Origin: an uncultured delta proteobacterium
Lineage (GTDB): Bacteria; Myxococcota; Myxococcia; Myxococcales; Myxococcaceae
DNA length: 64,000 bases
NCBI GenBank assembly: GCA_963776345.1
Contig: CAVZMH010000017.1
Span: 160,001-224,000, forward strand
Direction of reading: 5' to 3'
Shown here: positions 22,832 through 35,872 of the stretch, piece by piece
Position numbering within the stretch: position 1 is the stretch's first letter
How the letters are laid out: every line of letters begins with the position of its first letter
Translations under genes and position numbers: made by a program
Notes under the pieces: generated by a model
Told to the model about the DNA's origin: nothing
Database searches by the model: none
The model's input: only the letters and a program-made list of their open reading frames with translations

Positions 22832-24730
22832 ATGCGGCTGGTGAAGATCGGCCTCGCCTCGGTGAACACCACGGTGGGCGCCACCCACGCCAATGTGGAG
22901 CGTGCGCTGCGCTTTGCGCGCGAGATGGCCGCCGCCGGGGTGACGCTTGCCGCCTACCCCGAGCAGGTGGTGGGCGGATACCCGCCCGAGGACCTCATCC
23001 AGTGGCAGGGCTTCGTCGAGGACCAGTGGCGCGCGCTGGAGCGCTTCGCCGAGGCGACCCGCGACCAGGCCACGGTGCACGTCCTCGGGGTGGCGGTGCT
23101 GCACCAGGGGCTCCGCTACAACTGCGCGGCCATCGTGGCCGGCGGGCGCATCCGCGGGCTGGTGCCCAAGGAGAAGCTGCCGACCTACAGCATCTATTAC
23201 GAGGGCCGCACCTTCGACCGCGGGTTCCCCTACCAGCGCGACGAGCACCGGGGCGTGCCGTTCGGAGATCTCGTGTTCCGGTTCGACTTCGGGGTCGTCG
23301 CGCCGGAGGTCTGCGAGGACGCCTGGACCGCCGAGTGCCCGATGCGCCGGCGCACCTACTCGGGGGCGGAGATGGTGGTGAACATCTCCGGCTCGGCCTT
23401 CCGGGTGGGGACGGACCAGACCCGGCGGGAGATGCTCGTCACCCGCGCGGCGGACCACCAGTGCACGCTGGCCTACGTCAACCTGGTCGGCGGCAACGAC
23501 GGGCTGCTCTTCGACGGCGGGGGCTTCGTCGTCCAGAACGGCAAGCCGATGCTCGACGCGCCCAGGTGGCGGGAGGGCTGGGAGGCGACCACGGTCGACC
23601 TCGACCGCACCCTGCGGCTCCGCAGCGAGAACACCACCTGGCGTCAGGACCACGCGGCCTGGGCCACCTCGCACCGGCCGGTGCCGACCGTCGAGATCCC
23701 GGAGAGCGAGTTCCGCACCCGGCGGGAGGCGCTGACCTACCCGGTGCCGGCGCACGGAAGCTTCTTCCTCCCCGGCCCGGAGACACACGTCCCGGCCAGG
23801 ACGCGCTACTGCGAGGACGTGCTCGACGCGCTGGCGATGGGCGTCGGCGACTACTTCGAGAAGAACCGGGTCTTCCGCAACATCGGGGTGGCGCTGTCGG
23901 GCGGGCGGGACTCGCTGCTCACGCTCCTCGTCGCCCACCGCTGGGCCTCGCGCAAGAAGCCCGAGGCGCCGGGGAGCCTGCTCCGCGCCTTCTACATGCC
24001 CAGCCGCTACTCCTCGGCCGAGACGGAGAAGGCGGCGCGGACCGTCTGCGAGGAGCTCGGGGTGCCGCTCCGGGTGGTGAGCATCGACGCGGCCTTCGAG
24101 CGCGAGCTGGAGGCGGTGCGGGCCATGCTCCAGCCCGGCGAGACGGTGACCCCGCTCACCGAGCAGAACGTGCAGGCCCGCATCCGCGGGCAGCGGATGT
24201 GGAGCTGGAGCAACTCCTCGGGCGGGCTGTTCCTCCAGACCGGGAACATGAGCGAGCGGGCCGTCGGCTACACCACCGTGGGCGGCGACCTCGAGGGGGC
24301 GCTGGCGGTCATCGCCAACCTCCCCAAGACCGTGGTGATGGTGCTGCTCGACCACCTCCAGGAGGTCCACCCGCTGGAGGGCATCCGGCTGGTGCTCCAG
24401 AGTCCGCCCGGCCCGGAGCTGGCGCCGAACCAGGTGGGCGAGGAGGAGCTGATGCCCTTCCGGGTGCTGGACGCCTGCTTCCACCTCTTCGCCGACGAGA
24501 AGCTGCTGCCCGAGGAGGTCGAGCAGGTGGTGGGCGCGATGTTCCCCGACCTGTCGAAGGACACCGTGCACGGGTACGTCACCCGGTTCGTGAGGATGTT
24601 CCTCGCCAGCATCTACAAGTGGGTGCAGGCGCCGCTGTCGCTCCACATCGGCAACCTGGACCTCGACCGCGAGCGTGCGCTGCAGCTCCCGGTGGTCACC
24701 AGCTCCGAGTGGGCGCTGAAGAAGAAGTGA
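22832..24730 (+). CDS. nadE: Glutamine-dependent NAD+ synthetase
   Basis: Nitrilase domain (PE, K, EVCED) plus SGGRDS, QNVQARIRG, TGNMSE. Confidence 0.95.
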   Translation: MRLVKIGLASVNTTVGATHANVERALRFAREMAAAGVTLAAYPEQVVGGYPPEDLIQWQGFVEDQWRALERFAEATRDQATVHVLGVAVLHQGLRYNCAAIVAGGRIRGLVPKEKLPTYSIYYEGRTFDRGFPYQRDEHRGVPFGDLVFRFDFGVVAPEVCEDAWTAECPMRRRTYSGAEMVVNISGSAFRVGTDQTRREMLVTRAADHQCTLAYVNLVGGNDGLLFDGGGFVVQNGKPMLDAPRWREGWEATTVDLDRTLRLRSENTTWRQDHAAWATSHRPVPTVEIPESEFRTRREALTYPVPAHGSFFLPGPETHVPARTRYCEDVLDALAMGVGDYFEKNRVFRNIGVALSGGRDSLLTLLVAHRWASRKKPEAPGSLLRAFYMPSRYSSAETEKAARTVCEELGVPLRVVSIDAAFERELEAVRAMLQPGETVTPLTEQNVQARIRGQRMWSWSNSSGGLFLQTGNMSERAVGYTTVGGDLEGALAVIANLPKTVVMVLLDHLQEVHPLEGIRLVLQSPPGPELAPNQVGEEELMPFRVLDACFHLFADEKLLPEEVEQVVGAMFPDLSKDTVHGYVTRFVRMFLASIYKWVQAPLSLHIGNLDLDRERALQLPVVTSSEWALKKK

Positions 24731-25299
24731 CCTCGACCCGGCCGGTCCCCACCACGCTGGACTGGCTGCGGGTCAACGTGGCCATCGGCACGCTGAGCTT
24801 CGGGTCGGCGAGCCGCATCGTCCTCTACGAGGACGCGGTGGTGCGCGACCACGGGTGGCTGCCGGCCGACGAGTTCGCCGAGGTGCTCACCGTGGCCCAG
24901 CTGCTCCCCGGGCCCAATCTGGTGAACCTCTCGGCGTACCTCGGATACCGGCTGGTGGGCCCGCTGGGCGCGGTGCTGGGCGTCCTCTGCCTCTGTCTGC
25001 CGGGGGCCGCGCTGGCGGTCGGCCTCTCCGGCGTGCTGGCGGTGGAAAGGCCCTGGGTGCAGGGCCCTCTCCGGGGGATGGCGGTGGCGGGCATCGTGCT
25101 GCTCGGCCCCTTCTTCCGGCGGCTCTTGCCGGGGCTGGGGAGCACCCCGGACCCGGCCGTGCCGGCACGGACGCGGGTGCGGGTGGTCCGCAGCGCGCTG
25201 CTGGCGGGCGTCGCGACGGCGACGCTCTCGGGGGCCTCGCTCTTCGCCGTGCTCGGGCTGGCCATTCCCGTGGCGCTCTTTCTGGAGTTCGCCCTGTGA
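24727..25299 (+). CDS. Short-chain chromate transporter (ChrA family), first subunit
   Basis: GTLSFG, WLPADEF, AQLLPGPNLVN. Confidence 0.85.
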   Translation: MTSTRPVPTTLDWLRVNVAIGTLSFGSASRIVLYEDAVVRDHGWLPADEFAEVLTVAQLLPGPNLVNLSAYLGYRLVGPLGAVLGVLCLCLPGAALAVGLSGVLAVERPWVQGPLRGMAVAGIVLLGPFFRRLLPGLGSTPDPAVPARTRVRVVRSALLAGVATATLSGASLFAVLGLAIPVALFLEFAL

Positions 25300-26090
25300 A
25301 GCTGCTCGGGCTCTTCTGGATCTTCTTCCGGCTGGGGCTGGTCTCCTTCGGGGGAGTGTTCGCGGTCCTGCCGGAGCTGCAGCGGGCGCTGGTGGACCAG
25401 GGCTTCGTCACGTCCGAGGGGTTCGTCCAGGCCTTCGTGCTGGGGCAGGTGGTGCCCGGGCCGAACATGGCCATGTGCCCCGTGATTGGCTGGCACGTGG
25501 CCGGGCTTCCCGGCGCCGTGGTCGCCTTCGTCGGCATCTACACGGGACCGGTGGCCATCATGGGCGCGGCGTACGCCGTCTACCACCGGTGGCGGCGCGT
25601 GACCTGGGTGCGGCGGCTCGAGCTTGCGATGCGCCCGGTGGTGCTCGGACTGCTCGGGGCCTCTGCCCTGTCGCTGCTCTGGTCCTCGAGTTCGCCCTGT
25701 GAAGCTTCTGGCGCTGTTCTGGATCTTCTTCCGGCTCGGGCTGGTGAGCTTCGGGAGCGTCTTCGCCGTGCTTCCCGAGCTGCAGCGGGCGCTGGTGGAC
25801 CAGGGGTTCATCACGCCGGAGGGGTTCGTCCAGGCGTTCGTGCTCGGCCAGGTGGTGCCGGGGCCGAACATGGCGATGTGCACCGTCATCGGCTGGCACG
25901 TCGCCGGCCTCGCGGGCGCCGTGGTCGCCTTCGTCGGGATCTACAGCGGCCCGGTGGCGATCATGGGCGGGGCGTACGCCGTGTACCACCGCTGGCGGGG
26001 CGTGATCTGGGTGCGGCGGCTCGAGCTGGCGCTCCGGCCGGTGGTGCTGGGGCTGCTCGCGGCCTCGGCGGCGTCGCTCCTGTGGACCGC
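25285..26090 (+). repeat. Diverged tandem duplication, 403-nt period
   Basis: gagttcgccctgtgaagct at 25285 and 25688, colinear afterwards with mostly synonymous differences. Confidence 0.9.
25296..25687 (+). pseudogene. 3'-truncated copy of the second short-chain chromate transporter subunit
   Basis: GLVSFGG, GQVVPGPN; loses frame at about 25685, where the duplicated unit restarts. Confidence 0.7.
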
Positions 26091-26226
26091 GGCGGGGAAG
26101 CAGCACCTGCTCGCGCTGGGCGTCGCGCTGGTGGTCGGCGTGCTCGCGGTGAGGACGCGGCTCGGAGCGCTCGCGCTTCTCTTCGTCGGCGGCCTGGCGT
26201 GGTCGCTGGGTCAGGCGGCGCTCTGA
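25699..26226 (+). CDS. Short-chain chromate transporter (ChrA family), second subunit, intact
   Basis: GLVSFGS, GQVVPGPN, LRPVVLGL, complete C-terminal TMs. Confidence 0.85.
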   Translation: MKLLALFWIFFRLGLVSFGSVFAVLPELQRALVDQGFITPEGFVQAFVLGQVVPGPNMAMCTVIGWHVAGLAGAVVAFVGIYSGPVAIMGGAYAVYHRWRGVIWVRRLELALRPVVLGLLAASAASLLWTAAGKQHLLALGVALVVGVLAVRTRLGALALLFVGGLAWSLGQAAL

Positions 26227-27005: not shown

Positions 27006-28097
27006 CTAGAGGGCCAGCTCCTTCACCGGGACTTCCTTGTAGGTGAACTCCCGCGTCCAGTCGGAGCTCTGCTTTCCGTCGATCTCCACGTAGGCCTTGA
27101 CCAGGGAGTTGGCGGGCCCCTCATCTTGCGGAGGCTCGAAGACCAGATCACGCCCCGTCGACCACACCACCCGGCGCTCGTCGATGTTGCCGAAGTAGTA
27201 GTCGACCTTGCTCCGGTCCAGGCCCTTGTATCCGGTGGCGGTGGTCAGCTCGACCAGCTTCTTGTTCTTGTCGGTGATCGGGAATTCCTTGCCGTAGATG
27301 TTGGCCAGCGAGACATCGAGCGGCACCCAACCCACCCGCGGCGCGTAGAACTGGATCCAGCAGTGGTAGCTGCCGTCGACGGCGATCCCGTTCAGGGTCG
27401 GCTTCAGCAGCGACCCGTAGATCATCCTGGTGGGGATCCCGGAGGCCATCGCCAGCGAGGCGAAGAGGGAGTGGAAATCGGTGCAGTTCCCGGTCTTGGT
27501 GTTCAGGCAGTACTCGGTGCTCCCCACCGGCGACGCCTTGAGGTGGTCGGGATCCTTCACCCAGTAGTCGACGTTCTGCAGCGTCCAGTCGTAGATCTTC
27601 CGCGACGCCTTGATCGGGTTGGTCTCGTTGCCCACGATCGACGCGGCGAGCGCCTTGACCCGGTCGTTCACCACCACGTGGGTGGTGGGCTGGAGGTAGC
27701 GGGCCAGGGCGGTTCGCTCCCAGTCGGAGAGGGGCCGGGTGGCGGAGGGATCGGTCGCGGTCCGCATCTCGGTCCGCACCAGGTCGAACTCCTCGCGGAT
27801 CGACACCTTGTCCGCGGCCGGCGACTTCAGCTCGAGATAGCCGACCCGGTTCCCACCCGAGTCGTCCTCGACGGCGATCTTCCCCGCATCGGCGGTCAAG
27901 GTGAGGTTCTTGATGGTGGACCAGGCATCCTCCTGGGGCATCGCGAACCAGACCCGGACGCGCTGCGCCCCCTTGGGAACCTTCACCGTGAAGGTGTTCT
28001 TGACGTGGAATCCCGCTTGCTTCGGCGCATCGGCGGCCAGTGCCGAGGCGGCGAGCAGAACGGACGACAGCATCACCAGCCGACCCTGACGCATCAC
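27006..28097 (-). CDS. Secreted transglutaminase-like (Cys-His-Asp) protein
   Basis: Signal peptide; GNCTDFHSLF, YHCWIQFY, GWVPLD. Confidence 0.88.
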   Translation of the reverse strand: MMRQGRLVMLSSVLLAASALAADAPKQAGFHVKNTFTVKVPKGAQRVRVWFAMPQEDAWSTIKNLTLTADAGKIAVEDDSGGNRVGYLELKSPAADKVSIREEFDLVRTEMRTATDPSATRPLSDWERTALARYLQPTTHVVVNDRVKALAASIVGNETNPIKASRKIYDWTLQNVDYWVKDPDHLKASPVGSTEYCLNTKTGNCTDFHSLFASLAMASGIPTRMIYGSLLKPTLNGIAVDGSYHCWIQFYAPRVGWVPLDVSLANIYGKEFPITDKNKKLVELTTATGYKGLDRSKVDYYFGNIDERRVVWSTGRDLVFEPPQDEGPANSLVKAYVEIDGKQSSDWTREFTYKEVPVKELAL

Positions 28098-29608
28098 GGT
28101 CCTCCTCCGTCACGAAGTCGCCGTGCCGCCTCGGCGATGACCCTGAGCTTCGCGGCGGCAACCGAATCCGAAGCGAGGGGATTGTCGGCAAAGGTGGCAA
28201 AGCCACAATCGGGGGTGAAGAGCACCCGGTCGCGCCCGAGCAGGTCCACCGCCCGGTTCGCCCGGGCCAGGACCTCGTCGACGCCCTCCACCCGCGACGA
28301 CTTCTGGTTCACCAGCCCCACCCCGATGCGCTTGTCGGGCGGAATTTCCCGGAGCAGCGCCATCTCTCCGGCCCGCGGCGTGGCCAGCTCGAGCAGCAGC
28401 GTCCCCACCGGGGCCTGGCGGAGGAGCGGAAGGAGCGGCCGGTAGTCGCCGGCGAGGGCCACGCTCTCGTCGGGCGTCCAGTTCCCCCGACAGACGTGCA
28501 TCGCCAGCCGCTCGCGCGGCAGCCCGCGGGTGACCGCGGTCAGCAGCTCCAGGGCGAACCCCAGCTCCTCCGCTGCGTCTCGACGGGCGCCGAGCGCTCC
28601 GCACATGAACGAGCGCTGGGCCCGGGGGGTCCCGAAGACGACCTCGCTCAGCACCGGCTCGTCGAGCTGCACCAGCGCCGCCCCGGCGTCGAGCAGCTCC
28701 ACCACCTCGGCCCGGAGCGCGTCCACCACGTCGGTGGCGAGCTCCTCCCGGGTGGCGTAGGTCCGCTCCGAGACGCACTCCAGGAACATGGTCCGGGTGA
28801 GGAGGTACGGCCCGGGCAGCGCCACCTTGACCGCGGCGCCCGGCGCCAGGGCCTGCACGAAGCGGAGCTCGTGGAGGGCCAGAGGGCGCGTCCGCCGGAT
28901 CGGACCGAAGACGGCCGGGTGACGCACGCGCTCTGCCGGGACGTCCAGGGAGCGGAGCTCCTCCCGGAACTCCTCCGGGTCGTCGACGTAGGGAAGGAGG
29001 TCGGTGATCGGAACCAGCTGGCAACCGTCGAGGAGGCCTCCGACGAAGCTGGCGTAGTTGTCGCGCCGCTGCTCCCCGTCGGTCAGCACGTCCACCCCGG
29101 CCTCCCGCTGGGCGCTCACCGCGAGGCGGACGGCGTCGTCGGCGGTCCGCTCGAACTCCTCGTCCGGGAGCCGGCGCTCGAGGTGCTCGTGGAGCGCCTG
29201 CAGCATCCACCGCGGCCGGGGCCAGCTCCCGATGCCCATCACCGCCAGCGGGGGAATGGGAGGGGCGGGGACCTTCGCCGGTGGGACGGGCGAGGGCTCC
29301 ACCGTCGCCGGACGGGCCACGGCCGGTCGCGGTTCGGGCGGGGTGACTCCAGCGCTCCGGCCGAAGGCCCCCTTGCTCACCAGGAAGCTCGATTCCTTCC
29401 CTTCCCGGAAGCGGGAGACGAGCTCGTTCCCCGTCATCCGGCACCAGGCGGGCAGCTCCTCGTCCACCGAGATCTCGCGCGAGCGGATCTCCAGCAGCTC
29501 TCCAGGCGCGAGGGGGTCGATGTGCTTGCGGATCAGGAGCAGCAGGCCGTTGCCGCAGTCGAGGTCGCCCCCGTCGAAGCTGGCCTTGGGCGGGAAGGGG
29601 TGGCCCAT
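28094..29608 (-). CDS. TusA-domain fused, catalytic-domain-only (core) cobalamin-independent methionine synthase family protein
   Basis: N-terminal FDGGDLDCGNG...LPAWCRMTG, Pro-rich linker, then IGSWPRP, TDGEQRR, VQLDEP, HVCRGN, PDCGF. Confidence 0.88.
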   Translation of the reverse strand: MGHPFPPKASFDGGDLDCGNGLLLLIRKHIDPLAPGELLEIRSREISVDEELPAWCRMTGNELVSRFREGKESSFLVSKGAFGRSAGVTPPEPRPAVARPATVEPSPVPPAKVPAPPIPPLAVMGIGSWPRPRWMLQALHEHLERRLPDEEFERTADDAVRLAVSAQREAGVDVLTDGEQRRDNYASFVGGLLDGCQLVPITDLLPYVDDPEEFREELRSLDVPAERVRHPAVFGPIRRTRPLALHELRFVQALAPGAAVKVALPGPYLLTRTMFLECVSERTYATREELATDVVDALRAEVVELLDAGAALVQLDEPVLSEVVFGTPRAQRSFMCGALGARRDAAEELGFALELLTAVTRGLPRERLAMHVCRGNWTPDESVALAGDYRPLLPLLRQAPVGTLLLELATPRAGEMALLREIPPDKRIGVGLVNQKSSRVEGVDEVLARANRAVDLLGRDRVLFTPDCGFATFADNPLASDSVAAAKLRVIAEAARRLRDGGGP

Positions 29609-29622
29609 CGCCGTCCGGGCCC

Positions 29623-29985
29623 CTAGTAGCTCACGCAGGGACTGCCCTCGGAGAGGAACTCCACCAGCTTGGCGCCGCCCACCACCGTGGCGCCCTCGAC
29701 CAGCCTGGTCTCGTCGAGCCCGCGCTTCTTGAAGCAGGGCGAGCAGACGAAGATCTTGCCCCCCGCCTTCACGAAGTTGCCCATCAGCTCGGCGAGGGGG
29801 GCGAATCCCTGCTCGTGGATGTCCGCGGCGTAGCCCTGCTGCGAGAGCCGCACCCCCTCGATGCTGAGGAAGACCATCGTCTCCTTGTCCGAGGCGACGG
29901 CGGCGTTGGCGACCACGAAGGCCACGGTGGCCTTGTCGGTGTCGTTCTTGGCGTAGCTGAGGCTCACACAGAACCGCTTGCTCAT
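29623..29985 (-). CDS. DsrE/DsrF-like family protein
   Basis: VFLSIEGV, GGKIFVCSPCFKKRGL. Confidence 0.85.
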   Translation of the reverse strand: MSKRFCVSLSYAKNDTDKATVAFVVANAAVASDKETMVFLSIEGVRLSQQGYAADIHEQGFAPLAELMGNFVKAGGKIFVCSPCFKKRGLDETRLVEGATVVGGAKLVEFLSEGSPCVSY

Positions 29986-30245
29986 GGCGTGCTCCTTCGT
30001 TCGATGAGGTAGTGGGGAGGGTTCGCCTCCAGGAGGCGATGACCGGTCATCCGGCACCAGGCCGGGAGGTCCTCCGGCGCGCCGGGGTCGTGCGCCACGA
30101 CCCGCAGACGCTGCCCCGGCGACAGCGCAGCGAGCTTGTTGCGCAGCAGGAGGACGAGCTCACCGCAGCCGGTGTGGCCGGCATCCCACTCGGCGTGGGG
30201 ACTCAGGTCTGCGGCGCGACCCGGCGCCGCATCGAGCGGAGTCAC
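29982..30245 (-). CDS. TusA/SirA family sulfur carrier protein
   Basis: WDAGHTGCGEL, PGQRLRVVAHDPGAPEDLPAWCRMTGH. Confidence 0.85.
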   Translation of the reverse strand: MTPLDAAPGRAADLSPHAEWDAGHTGCGELVLLLRNKLAALSPGQRLRVVAHDPGAPEDLPAWCRMTGHRLLEANPPHYLIERRSTP

Positions 30246-35037: not shown

Positions 35038-35872
35038 TCAGCGCCGGAACTGGGCGGTGGTCCTCAGCGCGAACGGTACCGGCACGGGTCCTGACGTCAG
35101 CTGACCCTCGAGCGTGATGGGCACCGTGCCGCCCCGCACGATGGCCTGCGCCGCCTCGAACGCCCCCGCGAACGGGACGGTCAGCGGCAACGAGATCGAC
35201 CGCGACGTGCCGGGAGCGAGCGTCCCCAGGTCCTTCGCCGACACCTCGCCGACCCGGGCGCCGGCGATGCTCACCGCCGCCGCCAGCGCCTCCAGCGGCA
35301 CCGGGTAACCGCCCTTCGCGGTCAAGGTGACCGGCAGCTCCACCGTGGCCTGGTCGAGCGCCACCTTCGTCAGCCGCGGCGTCCCGAGCGCGATGCCCGG
35401 CATGTCCGGGAGCGAGAACGTCCCCTCGTGCGACAGGGGCAGCCGCACCACGCCGGCGGGCGTCTTCACCCCCACCGTGCCCTCCGCCTTGTACCCGGCG
35501 GCTTCCCTTCGCCAGCACCGTGGCCACCGCCTGCCCCAGGTCCGTGAAGCGGAACGTCGCCGGCAAGGTCACGTCGGCGCTGCCGTTGGCCGGGATCTCC
35601 AGCCCCTCCGGCGGCCGCCCGGTCGCGACGGGGTGCCCGTCGATGCTGAGCCGGTAGTCCAGCTCGGCGAGCGAGAGCCCGACCCCGTTCGGGTTGGTCA
35701 CGGTCGTCACCAGATTGAGCGTCGCCCCGCTGAGCGAGACGTCCGCCAGCGCCGCGCTCCTGAAGGCCAGCGTGGGCTTCTGGAACGCGCCGGCCGCGAG
35801 CTGCTCCAGCGTGGCGCAGGACGTCGTGGCGGCAGCGAGGACGAGCAGCAGGCGAGCAGGGAACCGGATCAC
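35038..35872 (-). CDS. LEA type 2 (WHy) lipoprotein with two domains; frameshift near 35500
   Basis: Lipobox-like TTSC, VTNPN motif; removing one base joins ...AKGS to AGYKAEGTVGVKTP and a second LEA_2 domain. Confidence 0.75.

Follow-up and report, generated by a model that had tools for sequence, protein, structure and literature searches.

We analysed a 64,000-nucleotide stretch of a Myxococcaceae genome (hereafter the window: contig CAVZMH010000017.1, positions 160,001 to 224,000, assembly GCA_963776345.1; the source genome is called G000 below) and found that a four-gene operon in it represents a real, widespread and apparently unstudied unit. The operon encodes a free TusA-family protein, a DsrE-family protein, a fusion of a TusA domain to a single-barrel (core) MetE-type zinc enzyme, and a transglutaminase-like protein. 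These genes very probably form one functional unit around the core-MetE enzyme, which bears a cysteine or, in some relatives, a likely selenocysteine (Sec) at position 336. On the basis of sequence and predicted structure, we tentatively propose that the fusion is a folate- and corrinoid-free methylthiol/methylselenol:homocysteine methyltransferase, with TusA and DsrE carrying sulfur. More speculatively, the unit may represent a widespread bacterial route for methyl groups between methanethiol or methylselenol and homocysteine, in which a protein disulfide or persulfide (or selenylsulfide) carries the methyl group instead of folate or cobalamin. Such a route would be an O2-independent alternative to methanethiol oxidase and would rely on a so far uncatalogued family of MetE-fold selenoenzymes, served by a dedicated TusA/DsrE relay and by an exported hydrolase. 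The features of the operon are as follows.

29982..30245, minus strand: free TusA-family protein, 87 residues (Pfam TusA 43 bits, cut-off 28.6)
29623..29985, minus strand: DsrE-family protein, 120 residues, with C81-x-x-C84 (Pfam DsrE 56 bits, cut-off 22.7)
28094..29608, minus strand: TusA::core-MetE fusion, 504 residues (Pfam Meth_synt_2 101 bits, cut-off 21); TusA domain at about residues 7-80 (Cys18), Pro-rich linker 85-120, MetE-type zinc barrel 121-500
28601..28603, minus strand: codon of Cys336 in the FMCG loop of the fusion (Cys in 123/128, in-frame TGA in 5/128 loci)
28205..28498, minus strand: zinc-ligand stretch of the fusion, with His371, Cys373, Glu407 and Cys468 (from alignment to MetE, MesD and 1YPX)
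27006..28097, minus strand: transglutaminase-like Cys-His-Asp protein, 362-363 residues (Pfam Transglut_core 80 bits, cut-off 23)

All four open reading frames lie on the minus strand where an initial annotation of the window had placed them, and the overlaps and the 14-nt gap that it described are confirmed. The TusA gene (30245-29982) and the DsrE start have 4 nt in common (ATGA), the gap follows the DsrE stop, and the TGA stop of the fusion shares 4 nt with a GTG start of the transglutaminase gene at 28097. The next codon, an ATG at 28094, is an alternative start that would reduce this overlap to 1 nt, and GGAGGAGG lies upstream of both candidates. From this spacing alone we infer that the four genes may be translationally coupled, as the initial annotation had stated more firmly. 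The GGDEF and PadR genes flanking the operon are not conserved neighbours in 80 loci from GTDB, no riboswitches were found in 10 loci, and no sigma-70-like promoter was found.

The unit is found in many other genomes. Among the matches listed, the 119 best homologues share 64-90% identity with the fusion over 95-100% of its length, which shows that the fusion is neither unique to this assembly nor a chance product. The nearest named relative among the fetched loci is a Myxococcaceae metagenome-assembled genome (87% identity, L021). A GTDB scan returned at least 556 related stretches, and the best 80 of these, which form the analysed set, come from Myxococcota, Planctomycetota, Binatia, Burkholderiales, Acidimicrobiia and Methylomirabilota. 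Three Paracoccus plasmids also carry the module, and cultured soil bacteria with it include Duganella, Massilia, Paraburkholderia, Paracoccus and Anaeromyxobacter. Counting fused and split forms, its occurrence is patchy: 13/251 Myxococcota, 12/201 Burkholderiaceae and 32/201 Planctomycetota genomes. The genes co-occur widely. DsrE lies upstream of the fusion in 70 and free TusA in 56 of 71 informative loci, where informative means that at least 3.5 kb upstream or DsrE itself was seen among the 80, a rule that favours positives. Genes in the relatives' loci were called with a codon-based script, not an annotation tool. We note that one unpublished genome (G295, L058) contributes one row to the counts 21/80, 70/71, 56/71, 60/63, 59/63, 12/201 and 176/201 and to the residue tallies given here and below, and another (G205) is one row of the 251-genome Myxococcota sample; none of the conclusions rests on either.

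Two variants of the layout were observed. An importer of PhnD/PhnE/ATPase type separates DsrE from the fusion in 21/80 loci. A split form, seen in many Planctomycetota and on some metagenome contigs, comprises a porin-like gene, transglutaminase, TusA, DsrE, TusA::OsmC and a free core; the OsmC domain of this form lacks the second Cys, and several copies lack both. The initial annotation had overlooked both the split form and the additional Cys/Sec336.

Active site of the fusion and residue 336

The AlphaFold2 model of the fusion (mean predicted local distance difference test score, pLDDT, of 81) consists of the TusA domain, a disordered linker (14 Pro in 36 residues, pLDDT below 50) and one barrel. 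Its top Foldseek match is 3RPD (MesD), with a template modelling score by target of 0.82, 24% identity and E 1e-19, and the motifs HVCRGN and PDCGF are present. A match to Meth_synt_1 (17.6 bits, cut-off 27) falls on residues within this barrel, so the fusion has no N-terminal barrel. The fused TusA domain scores 26 bits with Pfam TusA, just below the cut-off of 28.6 (E 7e-6). The initial description of the MetE-like part as a C-terminal zinc barrel, with TusA on a Pro-rich linker in place of the N-terminal barrel, therefore holds. The fusion stays below every NCBIfam methionine-synthase cut-off, including the best one, PRK04326 (162 vs 406 bits), and PRK09121, which we take to be the MesD model (91 vs 392), PRK00957 (92 vs 258) and TIGR01371 (81 vs 930). 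By domain, fold, zinc ligands and homocysteine triad, it belongs to the core (single-barrel) MetE superfamily PF01717, and it is the sole PF01717 gene of G000.

Residues were tallied over 195 searched loci, with the loci covering each position as denominators. The zinc ligands are invariant wherever covered (H371 128/128, C373 128/128, E407 129/129, C468 127/127), and so is the homocysteine triad of S128 (127/127), E179 (127/127) and D316 (128/128), which corresponds to S22/E73/D188 of MesD and S411/E462/D577 of T. maritima MetE with tag offsets removed. Because the full homocysteine pocket is kept, free homocysteine or methionine, and not protein-bound sulfur, is the most likely ligand of the zinc site, so the initial suggestion that the module methylates or alkylates protein-bound sulfur needs changing. 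The intact amino-acid pocket also argues against an identity as an epoxyalkane:coenzyme M transferase (XecA). The folate side is less complete. The folate contacts Arg15, Lys18 and Lys104 of MetE fall on the barrel that the fusion lacks, the stacking residue Trp539 aligns with R272/T273 and is hence unmatched, and the position of Met468 is Tyr or Phe. The folate barrel PF08267 had no matches in G000, which is 98% complete (positive controls matched 9/14).

The cysteines of the carrier proteins are conserved as well. Free TusA has Cys27 in a GCGEL motif, where canonical TusA has CPxP, and additionally Cys64. Cys27 corresponds to position 19 in the NCBIfam model for TusA, and Cys27 and the fused-domain Cys18 both align with the model Cys of the TusA family PF01206, to which the free protein belongs (43 bits vs 28.6; fused domain 26). 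Both fall short of the TusA equivalog NF001423 (41 bits free and 21 bits fused vs 78; motifs GCG and DCG). The TusA Cys is present in 127/127 aligned loci, among which the fused domain may be counted, Cys18 is kept in 126/126 loci, and C81 and C84 of DsrE, a member of PF02635, are both found in 116/116 loci. This invariance is in line with the role given to these cysteines initially. The relay may work by persulfide transfer or by thiol-disulfide redox chemistry, as the DsrE CxxC motif is compatible with both. In addition, free TusA often has a Cys-rich N-terminal extension (CxxC...CGH...CxxC) that has no Pfam match and may bind metal, for example in L117:8813-9397, L118, L124-L127, L129, L132, L103 and L115.

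Position 336 is the only non-zinc barrel Cys common to the fused and split forms; the split form has lost C196 and C278, which only the fused form keeps. It lies 20 residues past D316 and 14 past E322. Of the 128 loci covering it, 123 have Cys and five an in-frame TGA, all five being planctomycete split forms. In each, the sequence flanking the codon is conserved and a hairpin lies downstream of it, and the genomes carry selA (5/5), selB (5/5) and selD (3/5). These features are those of a selenoprotein, and TGA is likely to encode Sec in these five planctomycete relatives. A Sec at a conserved Cys marks a catalytic nucleophile, and the TGA codon in genomes with selA and selB therefore suggests that residue 336 is one. 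Loci were fetched for 20 of the 32 planctomycete carriers, a choice that took in the carriers marked for an inner TGA, and the TGA rate among carriers is at least 5/32. We also looked for Sec in the fused form and found none in 95 loci (strict motifs) and none in 97 fused copies.

We regard the predicted Sec codon, and not the co-occurrence of selD, as the firm evidence for selenium. selD was over the cut-off in 60 of 63 carriers (50 of the 80 GTDB loci plus 13 Myxococcota genomes). In matched samples, whose members are kin and not independent, it was found in 13/13 carriers vs 164/238 non-carriers of Myxococcota (177/251 in all), 12/12 vs 164/189 of Burkholderiaceae (176/201) and 29/32 vs 119/169 of Planctomycetota (148/201). 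The two main Myxococcota carrier families have it in 87/94 and 33/33 genomes. A strict selenium trait is not supported, as the signal in these samples is mostly lineage background. The text of a 2026 review of more than 110 prokaryotic selenoprotein families (PMC13188914) does not contain PF01717, PF01206, homocysteine or transglutaminase, although its supplementary tables could list the family; as far as that text goes, this appears to be a selenoprotein family missing from the review.

The transglutaminase-like gene and its exchange with SBP56

The N-terminal sequence of the transglutaminase-like protein suggests that it is likely exported. Its triad (Cys204, His244 and Asp260) is invariant in 18 aligned sequences, and the protein belongs to the transglutaminase-like superfamily PF01841. 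The model has a pLDDT of 93, and the nearest solved fold is 3ISR, an uncharacterised Cytophaga protein with 15% identity; an ESM Atlas search gave names no finer than Pfam level. We considered the gene a chance neighbour from its presence in 3/80 GTDB loci, and this was overturned by linkage counts for its subfamily, defined by E <1e-80, a cut set after viewing the gap between full-length and partial matches. The subfamily occurs in 22/32 planctomycete carriers vs 1/169 non-carriers, within 5 kb on the same contig in 19 of them and on other contigs in three. In Myxococcota, it occurs in 4/13 carriers, all adjacent, and in 0/238 other genomes. The gene is therefore part of the operon, as the initial annotation had it, in Planctomycetota and Myxococcaceae, and an accessory absent from most other lineages.

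Its other neighbour is SBP56 (PF05694, assigned at 645 bits). Among the 80 best metagenome loci of the transglutaminase (61-93% identity, many close kin), 16 have module genes, 38 have SBP56 directly downstream and none has both. The transglutaminase tree requires three partner changes, and 0% of 200 bootstrap trees allow one. This tree holds 60 of 98 sequences. The others are 26 that have neither partner and 12 from planctomycetes, which all adjoin the module and lie outside the tree set. At the genome level, SBP56 was found in 0/49 genomes (G000, 24 planctomycete carriers and 24 non-carriers), so a comparison of SBP56 with the module at this level is uninformative. In 23/23 full-length sequences, the neighbouring SBP56 proteins retain histidine motifs similar to the ones described as copper-binding, by motif match and not by alignment to the human protein. 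For the exported transglutaminase-like proteins of this orphan group, these results are a first hint of function.

Several further observations concern these loci. The transglutaminase, SBP56 and a 220-residue membrane protein with no Pfam match form a recurring three-gene unit, the membrane gene being present in 22 loci (L151, L156, L164, L177 and others). Longer fusions comprise one likely read-through and three tandem transglutaminases (P0125, P0126 and P0127) and contain no new domain; in these three, the first half of the tandem double transglutaminase belongs to the operon's subfamily. TIGR04282-type genes lie near transglutaminase-SBP56 loci. A cluster elsewhere in G000 (contig C22, L217:2791-10258) encodes an Rv1679-like acyl-CoA dehydrogenase, an Rv1680-like binding protein, an Rv1681 radical SAM protein (over the cut-off, with a TusA-like N-terminus) and a TIGR04282 transferase, together with a membrane glycosyltransferase-like gene, a radical SAM/SPASM gene, a GT2 gene and a DoxX-like gene. 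A glycosyl set like that of this cluster flanks the transglutaminase-SBP56 loci L165, L166, L172, L173 and L180.

A possible methyl transfer and its alternatives

Five observations lead to the proposed reaction. The intact pocket points to homocysteine or methionine as ligand. There is no folate barrel and no corrinoid gene in the operons, which calls for an unusual methyl partner or another reaction. Cys/Sec336 suggests that the donor side has a second catalytic nucleophile, the TusA/DsrE carriers suggest that a sulfur-linked group moves by disulfide exchange, and the exchange of the module for SBP56 hints at small alkyl thiols. A single proposed cycle fits all of these. In this cycle, CH3-S- or CH3-Se- would form a mixed disulfide with DsrE/TusA and move via the tethered TusA domain (Cys18) to Cys/Sec336. 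Zinc-activated homocysteine would then take the methyl group from CH3-S-S-Cys336, yielding methionine and a Cys336 persulfide, and TusA and DsrE would remove the sulfur or selenium for reuse or thioredoxin release. The net reaction, CH3XH + Hcy -> Met + H2X (Hcy, homocysteine; X, S or Se), could run in either direction and would break the same bond as the methanethiol oxidase SBP56. The substrate may be supplied by the exported transglutaminase-like hydrolase, or by the ABC (ATP-binding cassette) importer in other lineages. If true, methyl groups would be transferred by a new chemistry, and soils and wetlands would have a new route that consumes or releases methanethiol and methylselenol.

A number of points weigh against this proposal. 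Thiolates normally attack a disulfide at sulfur and not at the methyl carbon, and we know of no enzyme precedent for methyl transfer from Cys-S-S-CH3 to homocysteine. MetY-type enzymes can take up methanethiol directly, and G000 has metY and metX. E322, the equivalent of the pterin-ligand Glu583 of MetE, is kept in 127/128 loci, and R229, the equivalent of the folate-binding Arg496, in 112/128, which fits a pterin donor. The loop of Cys336 is modelled with low confidence (pLDDT below 50), which leaves the place of this residue uncertain. selD is only modestly enriched over background. A transglutaminase homologue is found in just 3/80 GTDB loci and missing from 77, and 26/80 metagenome transglutaminase loci have neither partner (11 of them short downstream). 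The neighbouring SBP56 proteins have Ala at the C-terminal Cys position in 23/23 cases (motif match), and their activity is itself predicted. The methanethiol link is second-hand via one accessory gene, with no substrate evidence in the window itself, and a scan of 79 neighbours turned up no recurring gene that would form or methylate methanethiol. Parts of the cycle have parallels in published work. A group transfer from DsrE to TusA via cysteines has been demonstrated (PMC4175335), demethylation of methyl-S/Se compounds has been proposed for relatives with the MetE fold in mlp clusters (PMC10418091), and a Cys-S-S-CH3 adduct has been reported on methanethiol oxidases (PMC10936201); the sulfane-sulfur mechanism of that last paper is disputed in PMC13603461, a further point on the negative side.

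The alternative we consider next, although rather unlikely, is a Cys/Sec-dependent reductase of an oxidised methionine or homocysteine derivative, such as methionine sulfoxide, a homocysteine mixed disulfide, an S-sulfonate or a selenium analogue. Zinc would polarise the substrate, Cys/Sec336 would attack, and TusA, the DsrE CxxC pair, OsmC and thioredoxin reductase would form an electron relay. The chemistry would be easy, thiol-disulfide exchange, and fits the invariant CxxC (116/116), the OsmC domain of the split form and the trxB or glutathione peroxidase genes near some loci. Bacterial Sec is mostly found at redox cysteines (PMC13188914), and DsrE3A cleaves TusA thiosulfonate reductively (PMC4175335). 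However, the operons have no recurring NADPH-linked reductase, the OsmC domains lack one or both cysteines, and the SBP56 swap would be left unexplained.

A fifth type of core methionine synthase, using a pterin or another ordinary methyl donor, is doubtful to a greater degree. Here the TusA domain would be a lid replacing the missing barrel, and the cysteine proteins would protect or reactivate the zinc-thiolate site. The intact zinc tetrad and homocysteine triad, the retained E322 and R229 and the status of the fusion as sole PF01717 gene of G000 agree with it, and so do metYXW genes divergent from the module in 10 Binatia loci, which represent one lineage, and the Cys/Met PLP (pyridoxal phosphate) enzyme directly upstream in L108. 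On the other side, Trp539 is unmatched (R272/T273), Arg15, Lys18 and Lys104 belong to the missing barrel, no S-adenosylmethionine or cobalamin riboswitch was found in 10 loci, the occurrence is patchy (13/251, 12/201 and 32/201 genomes), and a protective Cys is not expected to turn into Sec. The MetH activation domain is present in 59/63 carriers, so the fusion is probably not the main (housekeeping) methionine synthase; this agrees with the initial view that the module may not perform classical methionine synthesis.

We also considered whether the fusion replaces a broken MetH in G000, whose metH (contig C20, L101:1345-1347) has a frameshift near codon 87. The relatives' contigs lack the extra base in 4/4 runs, so an assembly error is likely and this idea was rejected. 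Other apparent frame breaks were seen in the window. At 24727-26226, half genes of what is presumably a chromate transporter contain a near-duplicated stretch and apparent frame breaks, and a further apparent frameshift lies near 35475-35872; all of these may be assembly errors.

Closest to the idea in the initial annotation is carrier-fed insertion of sulfur or selenium, in which a Cys336 persulfide would attack an activated homoserine bound in the amino-acid pocket to give homocysteine or selenohomocysteine without free sulfide. We consider it improbable. TusA and DsrE are sulfur carriers (PMC4175335), a cysteine desulfurase is divergent from the Paracoccus operon, metX/metY and selA/selD occur as neighbours, and the importer inserted in 21/80 loci is of oxyanion type. 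Against this, the open face of MetE leads to the sulfur/methyl position and not to C-gamma, judging from the known structure, metY and metX are already in G000, and the cysteine desulfurase is an irregular neighbour (4/195 loci). We consider it highly improbable that the unit detoxifies thiophilic metalloids or organometalloids (selenite, methylarsenicals or some arsenical resembling an amino acid) that enter by a phosphonate-type ABC importer and are handled on cysteines: the PhnD/PhnE-type importer within the operon, a putative selenate ABC system in L111 and the TIGR04282-type genes near transglutaminase-SBP56 loci speak for it, but ars, mer and metalloid efflux genes are not found repeatedly beside the module, the importer would be odd for such a role, and the homocysteine pocket is unchanged.

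Related systems and neighbouring genes

The module offers a defined, testable set of partner proteins for asking what donates the methyl group to core MetE enzymes that have neither a folate domain nor a corrinoid. Unlike MtsA, which is a methylthiol methyltransferase, and the mlp-type enzymes, the barrel described here is of the MetE branch (3RPD E 1e-19 vs MtaA 4AY7 E 9e-9), and its partners are TusA and DsrE. CdhD was found in 0/5 carrier genomes (controls matched), and the host type of MesA, MesB and MesC, a methanogen or Wood-Ljungdahl organism with a corrinoid Fe-S protein, does not apply. MesX (PF08908) was found in 0/5 carrier genomes, where no control genome matched, and not among the recurring operon neighbours. 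The MesD/MesX system (Price et al. 2021, PMC7857596; 3RPD) resembles the module in its single zinc barrel without a folate domain, the same zinc and homocysteine residues, its aerobic hosts and its need for a partner protein. Unlike MesD, the fusion (24% identical, 91 vs 392 bits with PRK09121, no MesX match in those five genomes, as in the controls) has Cys/Sec336 and TusA/DsrE partners. TusA, SirA and DsrE do not occur in the text of the Mes paper (PMC7857596), and its supplementary tables could list the family.

Type 1 mlp clusters (Kountz and Balskus, PMC10418091) share with the module MetE/UROD-fold zinc enzymes, a proposed methyl-S/Se demethylation with recycling of the methyl group to methionine, and a tie to Sec genomes, whereas they use a corrinoid protein with an activase, in anaerobes. 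DsrE3A and TusA of Metallosphaera cuprina (PMC4175335) are likewise co-encoded and move a sulfur group between conserved cysteines, and YedF (TusA+DsrE, SelD-linked; PMC5322559) has a similar link to selenium genes. These serve sHdr sulfur oxidation or Sec supply and have no MetE-type enzyme, and TusA here has GCG instead of CPxP and DsrE CxxC instead of Cys-X7-Cys. SBP56/SELENBP1 methanethiol oxidase (PF05694) adjoins the same transglutaminase subfamily in the module's place and cleaves a CH3-S bond. It has an unrelated fold, depends on copper and O2 and gives formaldehyde (PMC10936201, PMC13603461); it was not found in G000. Full-length T. maritima MetE (PMC539065) shares the zinc ligands, the homocysteine triad and the equivalents of Glu583 and Arg496, whereas the fusion lacks its N-terminal barrel, scores 81 vs 930 bits with TIGR01371, leaves Trp539 unmatched and has Tyr or Phe for Met468. 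A literature search covering few subscription journals found no published description of the module, consistent with the initial remark that no characterised pathway is known to have this architecture.

The neighbourhood of the module varies. selD and selA adjoin it in L114, the putative selenate ABC system in L111 is over the cut-off, and the Paracoccus operon (L136) is surrounded by the divergent cysteine desulfurase, selA, trxB and tRNA-Sec. Together with the metYXW genes of the 10 Binatia loci, these scattered sulfur and selenium genes speak for the proposed methyl transfer. An Rv1679-like acyl-CoA dehydrogenase lies near the module in five loci, four of which also have an Rv1680-like binding protein; no function of Rv1679-Rv1681 was found among the literature matches listed. 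In Paracoccus and some Burkholderiales, the genes of two proteins without Pfam or NCBIfam match (about 170 and 520 residues) separate DsrE from the fusion (L136:6511-8592; L087, L100, L030). In several Myxococcota, a gene of 69-71 residues, which we take to be TOBE-like, adjoins the operon (L103:7881-8093, L106:6066-6272, L107, L112, L113), and FdhD is upstream in L112 and L113. EgtB (over the cut-off) is divergent from one operon and a histidine methyltransferase is downstream of another (L104:9888-11045; L098:10039-11016), while an MSMEG_0572-like cluster, presumably Nit1C, lies near a third (L105:3109-4495). Finally, a second, more distant core-MetE gene is located 3.8 kb from the module in a Binataceae locus (L025:397-1560).

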